Shown here in pieces: positions 44,170 to 55,240 of a stretch of DNA of 64,000 nt (its first letter is position 1; the number at the start of each line of letters is the position of its first letter). The position numbers and the translations under genes were made by a program. A model generated the notes under the pieces. The model was given only the letters and a program-made list of their open reading frames with translations, was not told where the DNA came from and did no database searches. The DNA comes from an uncultured Gemmatimonadales bacterium (lineage in GTDB: Bacteria; Gemmatimonadota; Gemmatimonadetes; Gemmatimonadales; GWC2-71-9): the NCBI GenBank assembly GCA_963828735.1, contig CAWHFW010000003.1:32001-96000 (forward strand). Direction: 5' to 3'.

Positions 44170-45461
44170 GCGACCTGTTCTCCGCCGGGCTCCCGTGGTG
44201 GGGCTGGGCGCTGATGGCGCTCGGCCTCATCGCACTCGTATCCGTGCTGGGGGCGCTGTTCCTCCCCGACTGGAAGGAGTCCGACTACACGCTCGGCCAG
44301 ACCGCCGAGCCCGGCAGCGAGCAGTTCGTCAACATGGCCGGTGCGTACCTCAACAACCCGGTGTATCGCGGCGGCACGGTCGAGCTGCTCCAGAACGGCG
44401 ACCGGTTCTATCCCGCGATGCTCGACGCGATTCGCACGGCCAGGGACACGATCAACTTCGAGGTCTACATCTTCGACCCCGACGAGATCGGGCGCGCGTT
44501 CATGGACGCGTTCCTCGAGCGCGCCCGCGCCGGCGTGGAGGTCCGGGTCCTGGTGGACGCCTTCGGCTCGTTCAAGCTGCGCAAGCGGCACCGGAACGAG
44601 CTCCGCCAGGGAGGAGTGAAGGTCGAGCGATTCCGGCCCTTCGGCCTGAGCAACCTGGTGCGCGTCTACCGCCGGACCCACCGGCGAGCCATCGTCGTGG
44701 ACGGGCGGGTGGCCTTCACCGGGGGCGCCGCGATCTCGAAGAAATGGGCGGGTGACGTTCGGACCGAGCATGAGTGGCGGGACAGCATGCTGCGGATCAC
44801 GGGACCCCTGGTCGGCGGCATCCAGTCGGCCTTCACCGAGAACTGGATCTACTGCACGGGCGAAGTCCTCGCGGGCGAGCGCTTCTTCCCGCCCGCGGAA
44901 GCTGGGCCCGGCCCCTGCAGCATCTCGGTGGTGAGCTCGCCGTCCGACGCGCAACAGCCCATCCGGCTGCTCTTCTGGCTCACCATGGCCAACGCCCGGC
45001 GACGGCTGTGGATCTGCAACTCCTATTTCATCCCCGACCCGCGCCTCCGGACGGCGGTGGTGGAGCGCGCGCGGAAGGGAGTGGATGTGCGGGTCCTCGT
45101 GCCCGGCAACCACACCGACGCGATCCCGGTGCAGCTCGCGGGTCGGAGCTACTACGAGGAGCTGCTCGACGCGGGCGTCCGGATCTTCGAGTTCCAGCCC
45201 GCGATGATGCACGCGAAAACCATCGTCGCCGACGAGATGTGGTCGGTCCTCGGCTCCGCGAACATGGATGAGCGAAGCATGGAGCTCAACGAGGAGAATA
45301 TCGTCGGCATCGCTGACGAGGAGCTGGCCCGCACCGTCGCGTCGGGCCTCGAGGCGGATTTCGGCCGGTCGAAGGAGGTCCGGCTGGAGGAGTGGCGGAG
45401 GCGGCCCACGTGGCAGCGTGGGATGGAGGCGGTGGCGAAGGTGTTGATCGAGCAGTACTAG
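44166..45461 (+). CDS. Phospholipase D family, cardiolipin synthase ClsB-like
   Basis: LLQNG, HRR..VDG and HAK..AD..GSAN motifs, WRD, YFIP; ATGA overlap with EEP gene. Confidence 0.88.
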   Translation: MSDLFSAGLPWWGWALMALGLIALVSVLGALFLPDWKESDYTLGQTAEPGSEQFVNMAGAYLNNPVYRGGTVELLQNGDRFYPAMLDAIRTARDTINFEVYIFDPDEIGRAFMDAFLERARAGVEVRVLVDAFGSFKLRKRHRNELRQGGVKVERFRPFGLSNLVRVYRRTHRRAIVVDGRVAFTGGAAISKKWAGDVRTEHEWRDSMLRITGPLVGGIQSAFTENWIYCTGEVLAGERFFPPAEAGPGPCSISVVSSPSDAQQPIRLLFWLTMANARRRLWICNSYFIPDPRLRTAVVERARKGVDVRVLVPGNHTDAIPVQLAGRSYYEELLDAGVRIFEFQPAMMHAKTIVADEMWSVLGSANMDERSMELNEENIVGIADEELARTVASGLEADFGRSKEVRLEEWRRRPTWQRGMEAVAKVLIEQY

Positions 45462-45512
45462 GCGGGCGCGCCGGACGATCACGCGATCGTCCGGCCGCCG
45501 GACTCTCCTGCC

Positions 45513-45788
45513 TCACCCTCCCGCGATCGCCGCCACCACCGTGATCTCATCCCCGGAACGCACCGGCGTCGCGAACCCGCTGCGAAACCGGATGTCCTCG
45601 TCGTTCAGATAGTACGTGACGAACGGATAAGGTCCGCCCGTCTCGTCGCGCAGTCTCGGCGCGAGCCGCGGAAAGCGGTCCGCGATGGCGGCGACGACTT
45701 CACCGAGCGTCTCGCCGGTGGCATCGATCGTGGCCTGGCCGTCCGCCAGGCGGGCCAGCACGGTGGGCAGGCTAAAGGTCACGGCCAT
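45513..45788 (-). CDS. MoaD/ThiS/CysO-like sulfur carrier protein
   Basis: 91 aa beta-grasp pattern, LNDEDIRF, C-terminal IAGG. Confidence 0.92.
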   Translation of the reverse strand: MAVTFSLPTVLARLADGQATIDATGETLGEVVAAIADRFPRLAPRLRDETGGPYPFVTYYLNDEDIRFRSGFATPVRSGDEITVVAAIAGG

Positions 45789-47061
45789 ACAGAGCCTCCA
45801 GTTCGCGGATGCGCGGCGCGATGATCGGAGCGTCGGGCAGGGCGCCGTGCAGTGCCTCGACGGTCTTGAGTCCGTTGCCGGTGATGCAGAGGACGAGCTC
45901 GTCCTCGGGGGCCAATCTTCCGTCCTTTGCCAGGGCGAGCGCGGCCGCCACCGTGACACCGCCCGCGGTTTCGGTGAAGACACCGGTCGTCTCGGCCAGC
46001 AGCTTGATCCCCTCGACCAGCGCGGCATCGGATACGCCCGTGGCCCAACCGCCGCTCCGGCGGATCGCGCTCGCCGCGAACCCGCCGTCCGCGGGATTCC
46101 CGATCGCGATCGAGCGCGCGATGGTATCGGGCACCACCGGCGACACGTGCTCGCCGCCCCGCTCCACGAGGTGCACGATCGGGGCGCATCCCGCGGCCTG
46201 CGCGCCGTACAGCCGCGGCGCAGCGCCGGACACCAGGCCGGCGTCGGTGAATTCCCGGAAGCCCTTCTCGAGCTTGGTCAGGAGCGAGCCCCCCGCCATC
46301 GGAGCGACGACTGCCGTCGGGAGCCGCCAGCCCAGCTGCTCGGCGATCTCGAACGCCATGGTCTTCGAGCCTTCGCCGTAGTAGCTCCGGAGGTTGATGT
46401 TGACGAGGCCCCACCCGTAGCGATCGGCCACCTGCGCGCAGAGTCGGTTCACGTCGTCGTAGGTGCCGCGCACGCGCACGAGCCGTGGGTTGTACACCGC
46501 GGTCCCGACGACCTTGCCGAGCTCGAGATCGTGCGGGATGAAGATCCAAGCCGGCAAGCCGGCGCGGGCGGCCTGCGCCGCGACCGCGTTGGCCAGATTG
46601 CCGGTCGAGGCGCACCCCACCACCTCGAGGCCCAGCCCGAGCGCGGCGTTGAGGGCCGACGCGACGACCCGGTCCTTGAAGCTGAGCGATGGGTGGCTCA
46701 CGGCGTCGTTCTTGACCCACACCCGCGCCACGCCGAGCCGACGGGCGAGGGCGGGAGCGTCGAGCAGCGGGGTGAACCCGCTGTCGAGCGAGACCACAGG
46801 CTCGCCATCGAACGGCAGCCACTCCCGGTAGCGCCAGAGGGACGGTGCGCGGGCCGCGATCGTCGCGGCATCGGGGAGCTTTCGCCCGACGTCGTACGCG
46901 GGCTCTAGCGGGCCGAGACATTCATCGCAGGTTGCCGAGGCGGCGGCAGGCTGCGGTGTCCCGCAGAGTCGGCAGACGAGGGAGAGCGGCCGAGGACCGC
47001 GCGGCCGTGCGACGGCTTCGGAGGAAGTCGGGTCGAGCGGAAGGTCGAGAAGCGTCGTCAT
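45772..47061 (-). CDS. Threonine synthase-like PLP enzyme
   Basis: N-terminal CxxC..CxxC, SLWRY, SFKDR (PLP Lys), ASTGN, EGSKT, ITGNGLK. Confidence 0.92.
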   Translation of the reverse strand: MTTLLDLPLDPTSSEAVARPRGPRPLSLVCRLCGTPQPAAASATCDECLGPLEPAYDVGRKLPDAATIAARAPSLWRYREWLPFDGEPVVSLDSGFTPLLDAPALARRLGVARVWVKNDAVSHPSLSFKDRVVASALNAALGLGLEVVGCASTGNLANAVAAQAARAGLPAWIFIPHDLELGKVVGTAVYNPRLVRVRGTYDDVNRLCAQVADRYGWGLVNINLRSYYGEGSKTMAFEIAEQLGWRLPTAVVAPMAGGSLLTKLEKGFREFTDAGLVSGAAPRLYGAQAAGCAPIVHLVERGGEHVSPVVPDTIARSIAIGNPADGGFAASAIRRSGGWATGVSDAALVEGIKLLAETTGVFTETAGGVTVAAALALAKDGRLAPEDELVLCITGNGLKTVEALHGALPDAPIIAPRIRELEALYGRDL

Positions 47062-47115
47062 TGCGTGAGTTCCCGCCCCGGGCTCCCGAAGCGTCTCTCA
47101 GCGCCGAGCCAAATG

Positions 47116-47151
47116 AAAAAGCGCCCGGTGCCAAAAAGACACTCGGGACGC
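47116..47151 (-). terminator. Intrinsic terminator in leader (riboswitch expression platform)
   Basis: Minus strand GCGUCCCGAGUGUC-UUUUU-GGCACCGGGCGC-UUUUU. Confidence 0.8.
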
Positions 47152-47154
47152 GAG

Positions 47155-47206
47155 GCTTTTTAGCATTTGTTTAACGTGGCTGCAATAGGCCGCAAATTGC
47201 CACGAA
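47155..47206 (-). ncRNA. SAM-II (SAM_alpha) riboswitch
   Basis: UUCGUGGCAAUUUGCGGCCUAUUGCAGCCACGUUAAACAAAUGCUAAAAAG: P1 CGUGGC/GCCACG, pseudoknot AUUUG/CAAAU, UUGCA and GCUAAA hallmarks. Confidence 0.87.
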
Positions 47207-47276
47207 GTCAGTTGTCTGTGTCAGTGTACGTAATCGGGTGGGGGGACGCAAGAGGGTTCGATCGGCCGACCGCGTC

Positions 47277-49010
47277 CTACCAGTCCCTTCCCTCGGACCC
47301 GCCTCCGTTCGACCGCCGCCCCTCGTGGCTCGCGAGCTGCTCGCGTTGCACGGCCTCGAGCAGCTGTCGCGCCTGGTCGGCGTCGAGCTCCTTTACCGAC
47401 TCGCCCTCCCCCGCGCCGAAGCCGCCGCCAGCCATGGCGCCCGACGCGGCCTCCGGATTCCCCTCGTAGCCGGGCACGTTCATGTTGCCGCGACCGTAGT
47501 CGGCGGAGCGGCCGCGGCCCGAGGACCCGCCCTTCATGCGGTCCTCTTCCAGCCGCTGCAGCGCCAGCTCGAGGTTCCACTTGGCGTCCTGGTCCGCCGG
47601 ATCCAGACGCAGCGCCTCCTCGTACGCGCCGACCGCGTCGAGCAGCAGTTGGCCCCGCTCGGGTGCCTCCTCGGCGGCGCGGACGAGCGCGTTGCCGAGG
47701 TTGAAGACGCTCTGCTGTCGGAGCTGGAGCCGTCCGGCCGCGTAGCGGTACCGCGCGGCCGCGTCCTCGTAGCGCTTCATGCGATAGTAGGCGTTCCCCG
47801 CGTTGTACGCCCGGACCGGCGTGCTGTCCGCGGCCAACGCGAGGTCGAATAGCTTGGCCGAGCCGGCGAAGTCGCCGGAGGCGTAGAGCCGCTCGCCCTT
47901 CCTGGCGTCGAGCGACCCCCGCGCGCAGCCGCCGTTCAGGAGCAGCAGAAGCGGCAGCAGCACGGCGGCGACCGCGTGCGCACGCGCGCGCACTGGCACG
48001 GGTGTCCGCCGGCGCCGTACGCGGGCGGCCAGCCACATCTCGCCGAGCAGCGCGATGACGGCCAGCGCCAGCGGCCACTGAAAGCGGTCCGCATGCTCGG
48101 TCACCTGTTGGGTCGAGAGGGTGCGGGTGCGGACCTCGGCGAGCGCTTCGCGCAGCGCCTTGCGATCGTCGGCACGGGCAGCCCGTGCATACGCGCCACC
48201 CGTCAGCTTCGCCGCGGTCCGGAGCTCGTTCTCCTCCAGGCGCGAGATCGCGACTCGTCCGATGTGATCGCGATGGAACTTCTCCGGCGCCTCCGAGCTG
48301 TCGGCCGGCACCGGGCCGCCGCCGCTCGTGCCGACGCCGAGCGCGAACACCGGGATGCCCTCGCCGCGGAGGCTCGCGGTCGCGGCCTCGAGATCGCCCT
48401 CGTCGCTCTCGCCGTCGCTCGCGAGGAGCACGGCGCGGTGGCCGCGGTCGCCTTCGTGCTCGAAGACCTTGCCGGCCGTGGCGAGCGCAGTCCCGATGTC
48501 GGTCGCGGGGTCGCCGAGGTCGTCGGGCGTCGCGGCATCGAGGAACAGCTTGAAGGTCGCGTGATCCGAGGTGAGCGGGAGCTGCAGGAACGCGCTGCCG
48601 CCGAACACGACGAGCCCGACCCGATCGCCCGGCGACGCGGAGACCACCTCCCACACCGCATCCTTCGCCGCCGCCAGCCGGGTCGGCGACACGTCGGTCA
48701 CCGTCATCGAGCGCGAGAGATCCAGCACCACCAGCAGGTCCCTGCCCGTCCGCGCGAGCTCCGCCGGCCGCTCGCCGAGCTGCGGGCGCGCGAGCGCGAG
48801 CACGCCCAGCCCGAGCGCCGATGCCTGCAACCACGCGCGGAGGCGCGCGGTGCGTCCGTCGCTCAGGCTCGATCCACGCTCCAGCACCGCCGGCTCGCCG
48901 AACGCACGAAGCTCGGCCTCCCGCCGCCGCGTGCCGAGGAGCAGCGCGCGCAGCGTGACCGGCACGAGCACCACGCCGAGCAGGAGGACGGCCGGCCAGG
49001 CGAAGCTCAT
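47277..49010 (-). CDS. BatB-like VWA protein fused to TPR domain
   Basis: ALARPQ, DLSRSM MIDAS, PLTSD, SDGE; YNAGNAYY / FNLGNAL / AKWNLELA TPRs. Confidence 0.9.
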   Translation of the reverse strand: MSFAWPAVLLLGVVLVPVTLRALLLGTRRREAELRAFGEPAVLERGSSLSDGRTARLRAWLQASALGLGVLALARPQLGERPAELARTGRDLLVVLDLSRSMTVTDVSPTRLAAAKDAVWEVVSASPGDRVGLVVFGGSAFLQLPLTSDHATFKLFLDAATPDDLGDPATDIGTALATAGKVFEHEGDRGHRAVLLASDGESDEGDLEAATASLRGEGIPVFALGVGTSGGGPVPADSSEAPEKFHRDHIGRVAISRLEENELRTAAKLTGGAYARAARADDRKALREALAEVRTRTLSTQQVTEHADRFQWPLALAVIALLGEMWLAARVRRRRTPVPVRARAHAVAAVLLPLLLLLNGGCARGSLDARKGERLYASGDFAGSAKLFDLALAADSTPVRAYNAGNAYYRMKRYEDAAARYRYAAGRLQLRQQSVFNLGNALVRAAEEAPERGQLLLDAVGAYEEALRLDPADQDAKWNLELALQRLEEDRMKGGSSGRGRSADYGRGNMNVPGYEGNPEAASGAMAGGGFGAGEGESVKELDADQARQLLEAVQREQLASHEGRRSNGGGSEGRDW

Positions 49011-50002
49011 GGGACGCTCCGGAGTCGCGTCGCGCCCAGAACGAGGCCGGCGGCCAGCAGGAGGAGACCCGGCGCGAGCGCGTACGCGTACAGCTCGCGG
49101 TAATCGCGGGTCTCGCTGATCTTCACGTCCCGCCGCTCGATCGGATCGATCGCGCTCAGGATGTGGGTGAGCGCCTCCGGATCGGTCGCCCGGAAGTACC
49201 GGCCGCCGCTCCGATCCGAGATCCGCTTGAGGATCACCTCGTCGCCGCTGGTGAGGCGGTCGGGTGTCCGTCCACCCCAGCGCCAGATGAACCGCTTGTC
49301 GGGCCCGGAGGTGTCGGCCGCGCTCACCCCGATCGTGTGGATGCGAACGCCGATCGCCCGCGCGGCCTCGGCCGCGACCAGCGGCGACGGCTGGCCGGTA
49401 TTGTTGGCGCCATCGGTGATGAGGACGACCACGCTCGCCGTCGCGGGCAGATCCTTGAGCTGATTGAGGCTCATCGTGAGCGCCGTGCCGATCGCCGTCC
49501 CGTCGGGCAGCATCCCGATGTCCACCCGCCCGAGCATGCGGTCGAGGAGGTCGGTGTCGGGCGTGAGCGGGGCCTGGAGGAAGGCGCGCCCGGCGAAGAT
49601 CACCAGCCCGAGCAGGTCGCCTTTCCGTTCGCGGGCGAAGTCGGCCAGCACCTTCCGCGCGACCATGAGGCGGTTGCCAGGCTTGAAGTCGCCCGCCTTC
49701 ATGCTGCTCGAGATGTCGAGCGCGAGCATGATGTTGCGTGACTTGCTCCGGATCTGGCGGACCTCGTGCGGCACCTGCGGCCGCGCCAGCGCGACGACCA
49801 GCAGCGCCAGGCCGAGCATGCGGAGCGCGTCGGGAACCCACGGCCAGCGCGCGCGACGAGTGGTCGGGGCGCCGGCGAGGAACGCGAGCCCCGGAAAGCC
49901 GATCCGCTCGACCGGCGCGCGCCGCCGCTCGCGCCACTGGGTCCAGGCCCAGGCGCCCGGGACGAGGAGCAACAGCAGATAGAGGGGGTCAGCGAACCGC
50001 AT
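49007..50002 (-). CDS. BatA-like VWA domain protein
   Basis: ALARPQ, DISSSM, GTAIG, ITDGANN, GGRYFRATD. Confidence 0.92.
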   Translation of the reverse strand: MRFADPLYLLLLLVPGAWAWTQWRERRRAPVERIGFPGLAFLAGAPTTRRARWPWVPDALRMLGLALLVVALARPQVPHEVRQIRSKSRNIMLALDISSSMKAGDFKPGNRLMVARKVLADFARERKGDLLGLVIFAGRAFLQAPLTPDTDLLDRMLGRVDIGMLPDGTAIGTALTMSLNQLKDLPATASVVVLITDGANNTGQPSPLVAAEAARAIGVRIHTIGVSAADTSGPDKRFIWRWGGRTPDRLTSGDEVILKRISDRSGGRYFRATDPEALTHILSAIDPIERRDVKISETRDYRELYAYALAPGLLLLAAGLVLGATRLRSVP

Positions 50003-50942
50003 CGGCGACCTCCCGCGCGGGCGACGCCTCGCGCCATCCCACGAGCAACGCGCGCGCATCGCCAACCAGCACGACGGCCGCGGACGCGTCCGGGCGGCCG
50101 CGCGCGAACTTGACGAGGTCCGCCTCGCCGAGCAGGGCGGCGCAACCCCGGCGCAACGCACCGGCGCTCAGATGGGGCGGCAATGCCCGAAGCACTTCCG
50201 TGCTCGTTCGCTCGCGGGCCGGGATGCCCTCCGCCGCCGCGAGGTAGTCGCGCAGCGCGTCCGCCACGGCCGTGTAGTGCCGCGCGAGGTCTCCGGTCGC
50301 GGCCCAGCCCGCACCTTCGAGCTCGGCCAGGCGCTCGAGCGCCCGCTGGAACGGATCGGCCGCCTCGCTCGCCGCCACGTCCACGGTGGCGAGCGCCGGC
50401 GCCGTGACCAGTGCGCGCCGGCTCCGGCGCCGGAACGCCAGCACCGTGACCAGCATGGCGGACAGGGCGAGCGCGACGTAGCGAGGGTCGGGTCCGGGGA
50501 GCTCGACGATCTCCTTGATGTCCCGCAGCGTCGGGCCGCCGCCCGAGGTGAGCACCGGCGCGATCTCGATCACCACCGGATCGCTCCGAACGGTGCCGTG
50601 AAGGATCACGGCGCCCCGACGAAAATTGATCGCGAACGAGGGGATCGTCTGGCGTCCGGGACGGTAGAAGGCGAGACGCGCTCTCGCCTCGAGGACGCGG
50701 TTGGCGGTGCGCCGCATCGAGTCGACGGACAGAAGCCGGACCCCGTCGGCCAGGGTCACCTCCGGATGCGGCGTGGACTCGAGTAGCGCATCACCTTCGT
50801 ACAGCCGCAGCACCAGCCGCAGGCCGACCGGGTCTCCGACGGTGATACGGCCGGTGTCGGGAATGGCCTCGAACGTCTGCGCGCTCGCCGATGAGACGGC
50901 GATGGCCCCGAACAGCGCGAGGATCAGGACGGCGCCGCGCAT
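49989..50942 (-). CDS. MoxR-operon membrane protein (DUF4381-like), paralog 2
   Basis: Signal peptide, TVGD, LRDIKE, TM helix, ERTSTE, ADLVKFA. Confidence 0.8.
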   Translation of the reverse strand: MRGAVLILALFGAIAVSSASAQTFEAIPDTGRITVGDPVGLRLVLRLYEGDALLESTPHPEVTLADGVRLLSVDSMRRTANRVLEARARLAFYRPGRQTIPSFAINFRRGAVILHGTVRSDPVVIEIAPVLTSGGGPTLRDIKEIVELPGPDPRYVALALSAMLVTVLAFRRRSRRALVTAPALATVDVAASEAADPFQRALERLAELEGAGWAATGDLARHYTAVADALRDYLAAAEGIPARERTSTEVLRALPPHLSAGALRRGCAALLGEADLVKFARGRPDASAAVVLVGDARALLVGWREASPAREVADAVR

Positions 50943-51969
50943 CAGCCCGCCACTCCTTCGGTGGCCGCGGCCTTGAGCGCGCCGCTCCGCTGCCACGCCG
51001 TGAGGAGGTCGCGCGCCGCACGAAGGAACCCATCCGCCTGGCCCGGTCCCGGTCGCAGGCGTGCGAACTTGACGAGATCGGCCGCGTCGAACACGCCCTC
51101 GAACCGTCGTGCGCCGTCTCCGGCAAGCAGCGTCGGAGGCAGCACCCAGCGCAGCTCCGACGTCGTGCGCTCGCGAGCGGGAATTCCGTAGGCTTCGAGG
51201 TAATCGCGAACCGCGTCCGTGATGTCCGCGTAGTGGCGCGACACATCCTGCGCGGCCCAGTGCTCACGCTCGATGGCGGCCAGCCGTGCCATCGCCTGAT
51301 CGTAGGGATCGGGCGGCGGCGGTGGGGAACCCTCCTCCGCGGGCGCGATGGGCACCTCCGTGGGCGCGGACTGGCGCGCCCGCCACGCCAGCCATCCGGC
51401 GACTCCGAGTGCGGCAAATCCCAACAGCAGCTCGAGCGGCGGTCCGCCGCGGGACGCGAGGGGTTCTTTAATGTCCCTCAGCGTCGCCGAGGAGCCTCCG
51501 GCGAGCACCGGCACGACCTCCACGCTCGCGCTGTCGCTCGACAGCGTCCCGCGCGACAGTCCCTTCACCGATCGCATGAACGGCAGCTGGAACACGGGCA
51601 CGGCCTGCCGTCCGGGACGATAGAAGGCGATGCGCGCGCGCCCGACGAAGATGCGGTCCGGCTGGCGCTGCAGCTTCTCGACCGAGAAGATGCGAATCCA
51701 GTCGGGCGGCGTGAGTGCGGGCTTGGGAACCGTGTCGAACAGGAGATCACGCTCGTCGAGCCGTACCCGAAACGCGACGGTAATCGTGTCGCCGACCGTC
51801 GGCCGAGCCGTTTCGGGGGTGACGTCCCAGTGCTGTCCGTGGAGCTGTGCGGCGATCGAGCGGGGAGACGCGACGAGAGCCGCTAGGCCGATCCCGATGG
51901 CCAAGGCCTGGCGCCCGGGAATCCCCAGGACCGACCGGACGATGCGCGCGCGCGACCATTCCCCGCCCG

Positions 51970-51979
<10 letters not shown>
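50942..51979 (-). CDS. MoxR-operon membrane protein (DUF4381-like), paralog 1
   Basis: TVGD, AFYRPGRQ, LRDIKE, TM helix, ERTTSE, ADLVKFA; start approximate. Confidence 0.8.
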
Positions 51980-52847
<868 letters not shown>

Positions 52848-52851
<4 letters not shown>

Positions 52852-53873
52852 GGCACCGGCACCGCCTCGAAGATCCGTCGCAGCAGCGCGTCCGGCCCCA
52901 CGCCTTCGGCATCGGCGCGGTACGTGAGGATGACGCGATGGCGGAGCACGTCGGGGCCGAGGGCCTTGATGTCGTCGGGCGTGACGTACGCGCGCCCCCG
53001 AATGAAGGCGTGCGCCTTGGCGGCGCGCAGGAGGAAGATCGCCGCCCGGGGCGAGGCCCCGAACTCGATGAGCGGCGCGAGGTCCGCCAGCCCGGCGTCG
53101 GCCGGGCGGCGCGTCGCGCCGACGAGGTCGAGCACGTATTCCTTGACCCGCTCGTCGGTGTACACCTGCTGTACCACGCGCCGGGCGCCGAGCACCCGCG
53201 CGGGATCCATCACGCACGTGGCCTCCGGCTCGTCCGGCCCGGTCATCCGGTCCAGCACCTCCCGCTCCTCCCGCCGTTCCGGATAGGTGACGACCAGCTT
53301 GAACATGAAGCGGTCCACCTGCGCCTCGGGCAGCGGATAGGTGCCCTCGTGCTCGATCGGGTTCTGCGTCGCGAGGACCAGGAACAGCTCGGGTAGCGGA
53401 TAGGTCTGCCCGCCGATCGTCACCTGCTTCTCCTGCATCGCCTCGAGCAGCGCGCTCTGCACCTTGGCCGGCGCGCGGTTGATCTCGTCGGCGAGCAGCA
53501 GATTGGTGAAGATGGGACCCTTCTGGACGGTGAAGTCCCCGCTCCGCTGGTTGTAGATCATCGTGCCGATGAGGTCGGCCGGGAGCAGGTCGGGCGTGAA
53601 CTGGATGCGGTGGAACGCCGCCGCGATCGTGCCGGCGAGCGTCCGGATGGAGAGGGTCTTGGCCAGCCCCGGCACGCCCTCGAGCAGCACGTGACCGTCC
53701 GCCAGCAGCCCGATCAACAGCCGCTCGAGCATCGCGTGCTGCCCCACGATGACGCGGCCGAGCTCCGTCATGAGCTCGCCCACCAGCCGGCTCTCCTGCG
53801 CGATCAGTCCGGCATCAGGCAACGCGGAGGCCGCGCGGGGATCGGCCGCGAAGCGCTCGGGAAGGGTTGTCAT
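52848..53873 (-). CDS. moxR: MoxR-family AAA+ ATPase
   Basis: EGVPGLAKT, RIQFTPDLLPAD, DEINRAPAKVQSALLEAMQE, ATQNPIE. Confidence 0.95.
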
Positions 53874-53887
53874 GTTGGGGGAATCTA

Positions 53888-55240
53888 CTACGGCCAATCC
53901 ACGAGCGGGGCGGGTGGGGGACGCACGACGGCCACGGCGAGCGCGCCGGTGGCTGCGAACACTTCCGCGCGATGCCGCCGCTGGACGACCGCCCCCCACA
54001 CGTAGTCGCCGCGCTCGTAGCGCGCCCCGGAGTACCAGAACGTGATCGCGTCGGTCACCGGATCGTACTCGAAGGTCGTGCGATAGACGATGTCCTGGAG
54101 CGTCGGCGTGGCCCCCCTGGTGAGCACCGCGTTCGGCAGCACCTCCCACACGAGCCCGTCCGCGCTCTCGGCGATGTAGACCGCCGGCGTCGCGCAGTCG
54201 GCCTCCGTCTTGGCGTTGTAGACCGCCCAGAACACCTGCCGGCTCGCAATCCATTGTACGTCGATGTGCCAGGGCGAGAGGCCCGGCTGCTTGAGCGCCA
54301 CCCGGGCCGGCGTTCCCCAATGAAGCCCGTCCGCGGAGCGGCGTGCGTCCACCGTGGTGGCGGCGGCACCACATCCTGTCGTCCCGGTGTTGACGGCGAA
54401 CATCCACCAGTCGTCGGCCGCTCGCCGGACGATGCTCGGAGACACCAGCTCGTGGTTCGGGGCGCGCGCCACCTCGAGCGGCGCGGTCCATTGGCGTCCA
54501 TCCGCGGTTCGGACCAGCATCACGAGATTCGCGTCGATGACCTGGCGATAGTAGAGCCAGAGCTCGCCGAGTTCGGGCACGTAGACCAGGTCGGGGTCGG
54601 AGAGATAGCCGGTGTCCGGCAGCACCACCGGATTTGGAACGCCGTTGGTCAGCGACCACAGGTCGCGGCGAGCGCCGTCGAACAGCGACGGGTTCTCGAA
54701 GGACTGGTCCCCATGAGGATACGGCGTGATCGCGAGATGGAAGGGTTGCCCGAAGGCCCCGTCCGGCGTCGCGGCGTAATCCGGATGCACCACCTGGTGC
54801 GAGCCGTCGTAGGTCGGCACGTCGATCGGGAACAGCTCGCCGAACGGCAGCGCCTGGTCGCTCTCCGCGACGGCGGTGAAGATCGCTGGCTCGAGTCCTG
54901 GCAGGGTCGCCTCGACGCTACGCTGGCCCTCGCTCTTCCCGAGCACCCAGCGCGCCTCCGCGTGGCCCTCCTCGTCGGTCGCTGGATCGAGCGGAATGAC
55001 CCGATCATCGCCGACGGCGCGCCATTCGACCTTTACGCCGCGCATCGGCCGGCCGTCGCCGTCGACGACGGTCACGACGATCGGCGTCGGCAGCAGCGTT
55101 CCGATTTGAGCGATCTGTGCGTCGCCGTTGGTCACCTCCAACCGCGCGGGCATCACCGGCCCCGCACCGTCGGCGCACGCCATGGACGACGCAGACAGCA
55201 ACGCGATCGCGTTGGCGACACGATTCGAAACGATGCGCAT
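53888..55240 (-). CDS. Lipoprotein, Ig-like domain plus probable beta-propeller glycoside-hydrolase-like domain
   Basis: SMAC lipobox, NGDAQ Ig-like start, HPD..ENP..SDPD, repeated S.DG..W boxes. Confidence 0.72.
   Translation of the reverse strand: MRIVSNRVANAIALLSASSMACADGAGPVMPARLEVTNGDAQIAQIGTLLPTPIVVTVVDGDGRPMRGVKVEWRAVGDDRVIPLDPATDEEGHAEARWVLGKSEGQRSVEATLPGLEPAIFTAVAESDQALPFGELFPIDVPTYDGSHQVVHPDYAATPDGAFGQPFHLAITPYPHGDQSFENPSLFDGARRDLWSLTNGVPNPVVLPDTGYLSDPDLVYVPELGELWLYYRQVIDANLVMLVRTADGRQWTAPLEVARAPNHELVSPSIVRRAADDWWMFAVNTGTTGCGAAATTVDARRSADGLHWGTPARVALKQPGLSPWHIDVQWIASRQVFWAVYNAKTEADCATPAVYIAESADGLVWEVLPNAVLTRGATPTLQDIVYRTTFEYDPVTDAITFWYSGARYERGDYVWGAVVQRRHRAEVFAATGALAVAVVRPPPAPLVDWP

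Follow-up and report, generated by a model that had tools for sequence, protein, structure and literature searches.

A predicted SAM-II-controlled metM-metO operon for sulfur-carrier-dependent homocysteine synthesis in an uncultured Gemmatimonadales bacterium

Why would a gene that looks like a threonine synthase lie behind a SAM riboswitch, with a ubiquitin-like sulfur carrier encoded directly after it? The question is raised by a locus on the minus strand of a 64,000-nucleotide stretch of DNA (the window, by which we mean the whole of the sequence analyzed) from an uncultured Gemmatimonadales bacterium. The original prediction, made from the letters alone, took the enzyme for a carrier-dependent homocysteine synthase that would be misannotated as thrC. 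Our analysis supports that reading: gene anatomy, conservation, clade membership, and genome context together make it very probable that the operon is a two-gene metM-metO unit for homocysteine synthesis under SAM-II control. The operon belongs to the known MetM/MetO system, whose chemistry and misannotation have already been published, and the gain here is therefore one of range and regulation. Our additions are small: the SAM-II class of the switch, a predicted attenuation mechanism, the spread of the system across Gemmatimonadales, and the occurrence of a PanB paralogue in some of the operons.

The SAM-II motif proposed ahead of the gene pair was recovered by an Rfam scan as SAM_alpha (RF00521; positions 47140..47213, minus strand; 42.5 bits, gathering score 36, E 3.3e-06); it is the sole Rfam match in the whole window, and RF00521 matched in 0 of 14 control genomes. 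Downstream on the same strand are genes for a ThrC-like fold-type II PLP enzyme of 429 aa (45772..47061, predicted MetM) and for a ubiquitin-fold sulfur carrier of 91 aa that ends in GG without an extension (45513..45788, predicted MetO). Pfam assigns PALP to the enzyme (E 2.7e-61) and ThiS to the carrier (above cut-off; C terminus AAIAGG). The reported 17-nt overlap of the two genes is confirmed, and a GGAGG precedes the carrier start. Both genes fall inside the stretch first marked out for this unit (45513..47206), but the aptamer match runs 7 nt past its end. Between the carrier stop and a convergent cardiolipin-synthase-like gene that ends at 45461, the sequence itself shows an inverted repeat of 11 perfectly matched bp around a 4-nt loop (45470..45495, no strand assigned). 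The repeat has no U-tract and probably marks the end of the operon; given this repeat and the convergent gene beyond it, the unit consists of two genes. Just upstream of the operon and unrelated to it, on the same strand (47277-53900, minus), lie genes for a MoxR-type AAA ATPase, a DUF58 protein, and VWA/TPR proteins, a cluster that we take to be Bat-like. The guess of a Gemmatimonadota host was sound, as homologues at 85-86% identity are named Gemmatimonadota or Gemmatimonadales (4 named among the 120 matches listed).

The same arrangement recurs in relatives, which are not independent samples. An orthologue of the enzyme with at least 67% identity is encoded in 20 of 24 same-genus genomes and in 2 of 16 genomes of other families. 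The 91-aa GG carrier is next in 19 of the 20 same-genus genomes, and in the remaining one the contig breaks off 52 nt past the enzyme match. SAM-II is conserved in all 18 same-genus loci scanned (two more, whose contigs end just before the gene, were outside the scan); with genome G029 included, Rfam found it in 19 of 20 loci, and in genome G033 it lies further upstream. The order in G029 is SAM-II-hom-metM-carrier-moeZ, and in G033 it is SAM-II-aminotransferase-panB-thrB-carrier-moeZ-metM. Across an even draw of 201 genomes from the order Gemmatimonadales, 60 encode the enzyme at E<=1e-100. At 14 loci picked by hand from other genera among those 60, the carrier is present in 13, moeZ is part of the operon in 11, the SAM-II pattern occurs in 12 (passing the Rfam cut-off in 8), and several also contain hom, thrB, or panB. 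Two more distant orthologues (60-62% identity) have no SAM-II pattern; one (L178) is accompanied by a C-terminally extended carrier and by a JAMM gene, and the other (L179) by thrB, with no carrier in the 9.5 kb fetched.

We compared the enzyme with threonine synthases and with possible orthologues outside the phylum. It has a PLP lysine (K129) and an N-terminal CxxC...CxxC, and all five PDB sequences that match it at E<=1e-10 bear the name threonine synthase. Its identity to the ThrC of the genome's own thr operon is about 35%, as it is to a third ThrC-like gene (35%), and it is 48-50% identical to Streptomyces and Nonomuraea orthologues of the same layout. One of these, a Nonomuraea gerenzanensis match (48%, from a plasmid collection), combines a SAM-I riboswitch, the enzyme, and a GG carrier. 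A search with an alignment led by this match gave 570 confirmed stretches, of which the best 80 are all actinobacterial by their titles; within these best 80 of 570, the enzyme is 46-53% identical to 80/80 (the genome's own thr-operon ThrC, 29-33%), a carrier lies directly downstream in 79/80, and a SAM-I riboswitch lies upstream in 20/20 of those scanned. A tree of 36 proteins unites the enzyme with 8 Gemmatimonadales relatives and 15 actinobacterial rows in one group (100/99) and keeps this group separate from 7 thr-type ThrC rows, as the original prediction would have it with respect to true ThrC. The tree carries a long-branch warning near the grouping node and was built from a set outside which the characterized enzymes fall; pairwise identities and motifs agree with its grouping. 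Four weak matches in other families (34-39% identity, L033-L036) fall outside the group, and within about 1.5 kb of them there is no carrier and no SAM-II pattern. Neither the accessions of Streptomyces albulus MetM (A0A059WBP2) and MetO (A0A059W7F4) nor the species name appeared among the matches listed, and membership in the MetM lineage therefore rests on Streptomyces orthologues chosen by context. That two SAM riboswitch classes precede the same enzyme lineage provides independent support for the MetM assignment.

Could the enzyme nevertheless be mainly a second threonine synthase, or a threonine deaminase, with the carrier as a passenger? It passes the TIGR00260 thrC model (261 bits, cut-off 167), although this match is not discriminating, because the Streptomyces orthologue passes too (264.5 bits). 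The main caution against the MetM reading comes from Microcystis: according to the available text of PMC12172450, a member of the lineage there (51.6% identical to MetM, with an adjacent carrier and no riboswitch) has threonine synthase and threonine deaminase activity in vitro, converting O-phosphohomoserine to threonine and threonine to 2-oxobutyrate. On the other side, tblastn found two further ThrC-like genes in the window's own genome. Both context and motifs mark one of them, behind thrA and thrB on contig C5, as the canonical threonine synthase, so that the anticipated second thrC exists as part of a separate thrA-thrB-thrC operon. The third ThrC-like gene passes PRK08197 and lies on contig C1 (L001:7776-8969) between two reading frames that, from their starts, we take to be uvrC-like and larC-like. 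An orthologue of the thr-operon ThrC was found in 18 of 22 cassette-bearing relatives; the 4 without a match, which lend the second-threonine-synthase reading some support, are 70-93% complete, fragmented assemblies.

The active site also argues against a threonine synthase. Gemmatimonadales and actinobacterial enzymes share the motifs STGNL and N[IV]N[LV]RxYYxEG[S]K, which correspond to STGNT and NS[IV]NPxRxEGQK in threonine synthases from thr operons and the PDB. The canonical ThrC set (STGNT, NS[IV]NPxRxEGQK, and GN.GN) and thr-operon context are absent from the window enzyme and present in the C5 gene. In an alignment with the Thermus thermophilus enzyme (1UIM), counted by hand, K61 and N154 are kept as K129 and N221, and T88, S155, R160, Q164, and N188 are replaced by L156, N223, Y228, S232, and G257; in the Thermus enzyme, several of the five replaced residues presumably bind the phosphate group through which water is activated when threonine is made. 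Repression of threonine synthesis by SAM would make little sense, and a passenger carrier is at odds with the retention of the carrier in nearly all same-genus genomes and with moeZ inside the operon at most of the other-genus loci described above. We therefore consider a threonine synthase or deaminase role very unlikely as the main function and retain the MetM assignment.

How would the leader control such an operon? It lies upstream of, and in sense with, what is on our reading a methionine-pathway gene, and its aptamer includes a P1 stem (47204-47199 with 47180-47175, minus strand) and a pseudoknot 3' strand (47165-47156, minus). Folding predicts an intrinsic terminator at 47112..47151 (minus), composed of a hairpin (47151-47121, -18.6 kcal/mol) and a U-rich tract (47120-47112). 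A simple consensus scan of 45300-47500 found neither a terminator nor a sigma-70-type promoter; it missed the hairpin because the stem has bulges. Terminator-like elements were found in 30 of 39 leaders and in 19 of 195 shuffles. The aptamer's 3' strand is also predicted to form 10 bp with the terminator's loop and 3' stem (47165-47156 with 47138-47129), giving a putative antiterminator (47129..47165, minus). A helix of at least 8 bp at this place is available in 28 of 39 leaders, compared with 3.9% of shuffles; by target, it occurs in 18 of 19 direct leaders of the enzyme (where the 10-bp helix is kept), 9 of 14 metH leaders, and 1 of 6 others, and in metH leaders an A-U pair has changed to C-G by compensating substitutions on both sides. 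The leaders in these counts are related, and the counts are accordingly not independent. Other candidate antiterminators, in which the P1 5' strand or the loop pairs with the 5' side of the terminator, were weak (-5.6 and -5.5 kcal/mol, versus -10.0 kcal/mol for P1) and were rejected.

In SAM-II structures, this strand is held in the pseudoknot when SAM is bound. At low SAM, the aptamer 3' strand would pair into the terminator and transcription would continue; with SAM bound, the strand would be held in the pseudoknot, the terminator would form, and the operon would be off. From this model, and from the comparison between leaders, we infer that the leader acts as an OFF switch by transcription attenuation. 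Terminators downstream of SAM-II are already known (Corbino 2005, PMC1273637, and PMC9373788, in the portions available). The available text of PMC9373788 also reports that the terminator behind the Sinorhizobium meliloti metA SAM-II riboswitch was not predicted to be SAM-dependent, which would fit a leader that precedes a genuine MetM yet is degenerate or retuned, with a constitutive or leaky terminator. At one aptamer position the Rfam consensus has G, this leader has A, and most same-genus leaders have C, which points the same way; the UUU, UUGC, and GCUAAA core and P1 are, however, preserved in the leaders examined, and the retention and compensation of the pseudoknot-strand helix would be hard to reconcile with a leader that does not switch. 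We regard such a leader as even less likely than a threonine synthase and favor a functional SAM-responsive attenuator. RNA runs had no bearing on expression or termination, as at most 0.11 of words were present and 4 of 24 listed runs gave scattered contig pieces.

The other SAM-II targets belong largely to methionine synthesis. Thirteen genomes yielded 31 matches, one of them without a locus; the remaining 30 loci lead metH (14), the enzyme or its operon (12), aspartate-kinase-like genes (2), and unassigned targets (2; L121 and L133). The aspartate-kinase-like genes are short and occur in two same-genus genomes (L138, L149). In the genome studied here (97.5% complete, 5.17% contamination), the second SAM-II match leads metH together with a homocysteine methyltransferase/MTHFR gene. 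No SAM-I riboswitch was found in this genome (150 of 259 candidates scored), and no Rfam riboswitch was found at the metY-metX operon, thr operon, or cysM cluster loci.

The expectation that metB, metY, and metZ would be missing failed. The genome has a metY-aspartate kinase-carbonic anhydrase-metX cluster, in which metY passes the TIGR01326 cut-off and metX scores 300.6 bits, below its family cut-off of 331, as well as metB-like genes, one of them above the PRK07811 cut-off; the MetM route is thus redundant in this genome. A second metY-like gene, on contig C4 (272.7-273.9 kb), is split by a frameshift that is either a lesion or an assembly error. The redundancy may not extend to all relatives. 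The genome's own MetX matches 15 of 40 relatives, including 10 of the 22 that carry the cassette, and the other 12 cassette bearers have no match to it at E<=1e-30. In those 12, the MetX family model found nothing in 9 at E<=1e-8 and weak matches (91-159 bits) in 3, MetA was found in none (0/12), and a SAM-II-led metH was found in all (12/12, one below the Rfam cut-off). These assemblies are incomplete (84-100%) and are kin, and the absence of MetX and MetA is therefore to be read as "not found in those searched."

The machinery that would charge the carrier is encoded elsewhere in the genome, as the original prediction had anticipated for MoeB/MoeZ and a JAMM peptidase. The only ThiF-family gene encodes a ThiS-ThiF-rhodanese fusion (MoeZ) and lies in an Rrf2-cysM-JAMM peptidase cluster (contig C5, 149.9-153.3 kb). 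Its ThiS-family carrier domain is joined to the MoeZ-rhodanese part through ...IAGG, and a full-length match to the fusion occurs in 20 of 24 same-genus genomes. The adjoining JAMM peptidase (Prok-JAB, 93.7 bits) probably frees the carrier from the carrier::MoeZ fusion, and MoeZ would also charge the window carrier. Four ThiS-family carriers are encoded in all. By the ORF lists, one adjoins a thiG-like gene and another moaE/moaA-like genes; the remaining two are the MoeZ-fused one and the one in the window, which given the first two is not required to make thiamin or molybdopterin. Among PDB entries, the window carrier matches best to 3DWG chain C ("cfp10A"), which we take to be the CysO partner in the CysM/CysO complex, and to 4N6E chain B ("ThiS/MoaD family protein"). 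A C-terminal GGC is found on many Streptomyces carriers and agrees with the Mec step ("[MetO]-L-cysteine hydrolase") listed for MetO; the window carrier, ending in GG without a Cys extension, would require no such trimming. The least likely alternative, that the pair transfers sulfur to a different acceptor or yields a different product (cysteine made from phosphoserine, cystathionine made from O-phosphohomoserine plus free cysteine, or cysteate), draws on the resemblance of the carrier to 3DWG chain C and on the enzyme's weak cysteate synthase match (69 bits against a model cut-off of 325), and it is opposed by the separate Rrf2-cysM-mec-[carrier::moeZ] cluster that serves cysteine, by the presence of the O-phosphohomoserine-supplying genes hom and thrB in the corresponding SAM-II operons of relatives, and by the fact that SAM-II in these genomes otherwise leads metH.

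With homocysteine as the product, the route would run as follows. ThrA and ThrB would provide O-phosphohomoserine; MoeZ, with its rhodanese domain, would adenylate the C-terminal Gly-Gly of the carrier and convert it to a thiocarboxylate; and the PLP enzyme would eliminate phosphate and attach the sulfur of the thiocarboxylate to the gamma carbon. Homocysteine would then be released, by analogy with CysM/CysO, whose chemistry is the model for release from the carrier, and MetH would convert it to methionine. CysM, CysO, Mec, and MoeZ make up the cysteine route of mycobacteria. In Wolinella succinogenes, HcyS/MetY reportedly uses the sulfur of a protein thiocarboxylate with O-acetylhomoserine as the acceptor. 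The present pair resembles both systems in that a protein thiocarboxylate delivers sulfur to a PLP enzyme, and it differs from them in enzyme family (CysM and MetY there) and in acceptor (phosphoserine and, reportedly, O-acetylhomoserine there).

The closest known system is that of S. albulus. A ThrC-homolog/carrier route to homocysteine in Streptomyces, which the original prediction had invoked, is real: Table 2 and S1D of PMC13759103 (GapMind 2026) list MetM, MetO, Mec, and MoeZ of S. albulus with evidence "yes," from Hasebe et al. 2024 (Appl Environ Microbiol 90:e01247-24), and the available text states that MetM is often misannotated as threonine synthase. A SAM riboswitch upstream of S. 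albulus metM is described in the accessible part of PMC12172450, MetM/MetO is also cited in the portion available of 10.64898/2026.09.15.751699, and the Wolinella thiocarboxylate route is cited in that of PMC5764234. The window operon shares with S. albulus a ThrC-homologous PLP enzyme beside a ubiquitin-like carrier, an upstream SAM riboswitch, MoeZ and a JAMM peptidase in the genome, and annotation as threonine synthase. It differs in the class of the switch, which is SAM-II here and SAM-I in every scanned actinobacterial locus (S. albulus's own class not being among them), in the absence of a Cys extension on the carrier, in its Gemmatimonadales host, and in coexisting with metXY. Compared with ThrC itself (TIGR00260; PDB 1UIM, 2ZSJ, 6CGQ, and 2D1F), the fold, the PLP lysine motif SFKDR, and the probable substrate O-phosphohomoserine are the same; the low identity, the altered active-site motifs, and linkage to a carrier and a SAM switch rather than to thrA-thrB are different.

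Known SAM-II riboswitches (RF00521; PMC1273637; S. meliloti metZ and metA in PMC9373788, as far as the accessible text goes) share with this leader the aptamer consensus, a place before methionine genes, and a terminator behind the pseudoknot. They differ in host phylum and target gene as far as our literature searches showed, and the leader described here has in addition an explicitly predicted antiterminator helix. Those searches gave no publication on SAM-II in Gemmatimonad or Gemmatimonadetes hosts or with this target gene, and for the pathway itself they gave, apart from unrelated listings, no papers beyond those cited here, although Hasebe 2024 or its supplement may list Gemmatimonadota homologues; the text of PMC5473149, figures apart, has no mention of "Gemmatimonad" in the portion available.

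A panB-like gene was observed inside SAM-II-led metM operons at 4 of 16 other-genus loci (L039:7858-8829 of G033, L182, L183, and L185), and three of these four genomes have a second, higher-scoring panB elsewhere. We tentatively suggest a broader picture, possible though on balance doubtful as a whole. In it, MetM/MetO would be the main or only homocysteine route in a large part of the Gemmatimonadales, wired to a SAM-II attenuator with a pseudoknot-strand antiterminator independently of the Actinobacteria. A single MoeZ, synthesized as a carrier::MoeZ polyprotein from which the JAMM peptidase releases it, would charge four carriers (ThiS, MoaD, CysO-like, and MetO-like) and so split sulfur between cysteine and methionine. 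The PanB paralogue would be an undescribed accessory, for example a sink for 2-oxobutyrate released by the enzyme when carrier sulfur is short.

As a SAM-II switch that would act by terminating transcription, and with its predicted antiterminator, the leader is a compact and testable example. For the organisms themselves, recognizing the operon as metM-metO would correct gene annotation and metabolic models for an abundant soil lineage, mostly uncultured, in which genomes without metX or metA would otherwise be scored as methionine auxotrophs.
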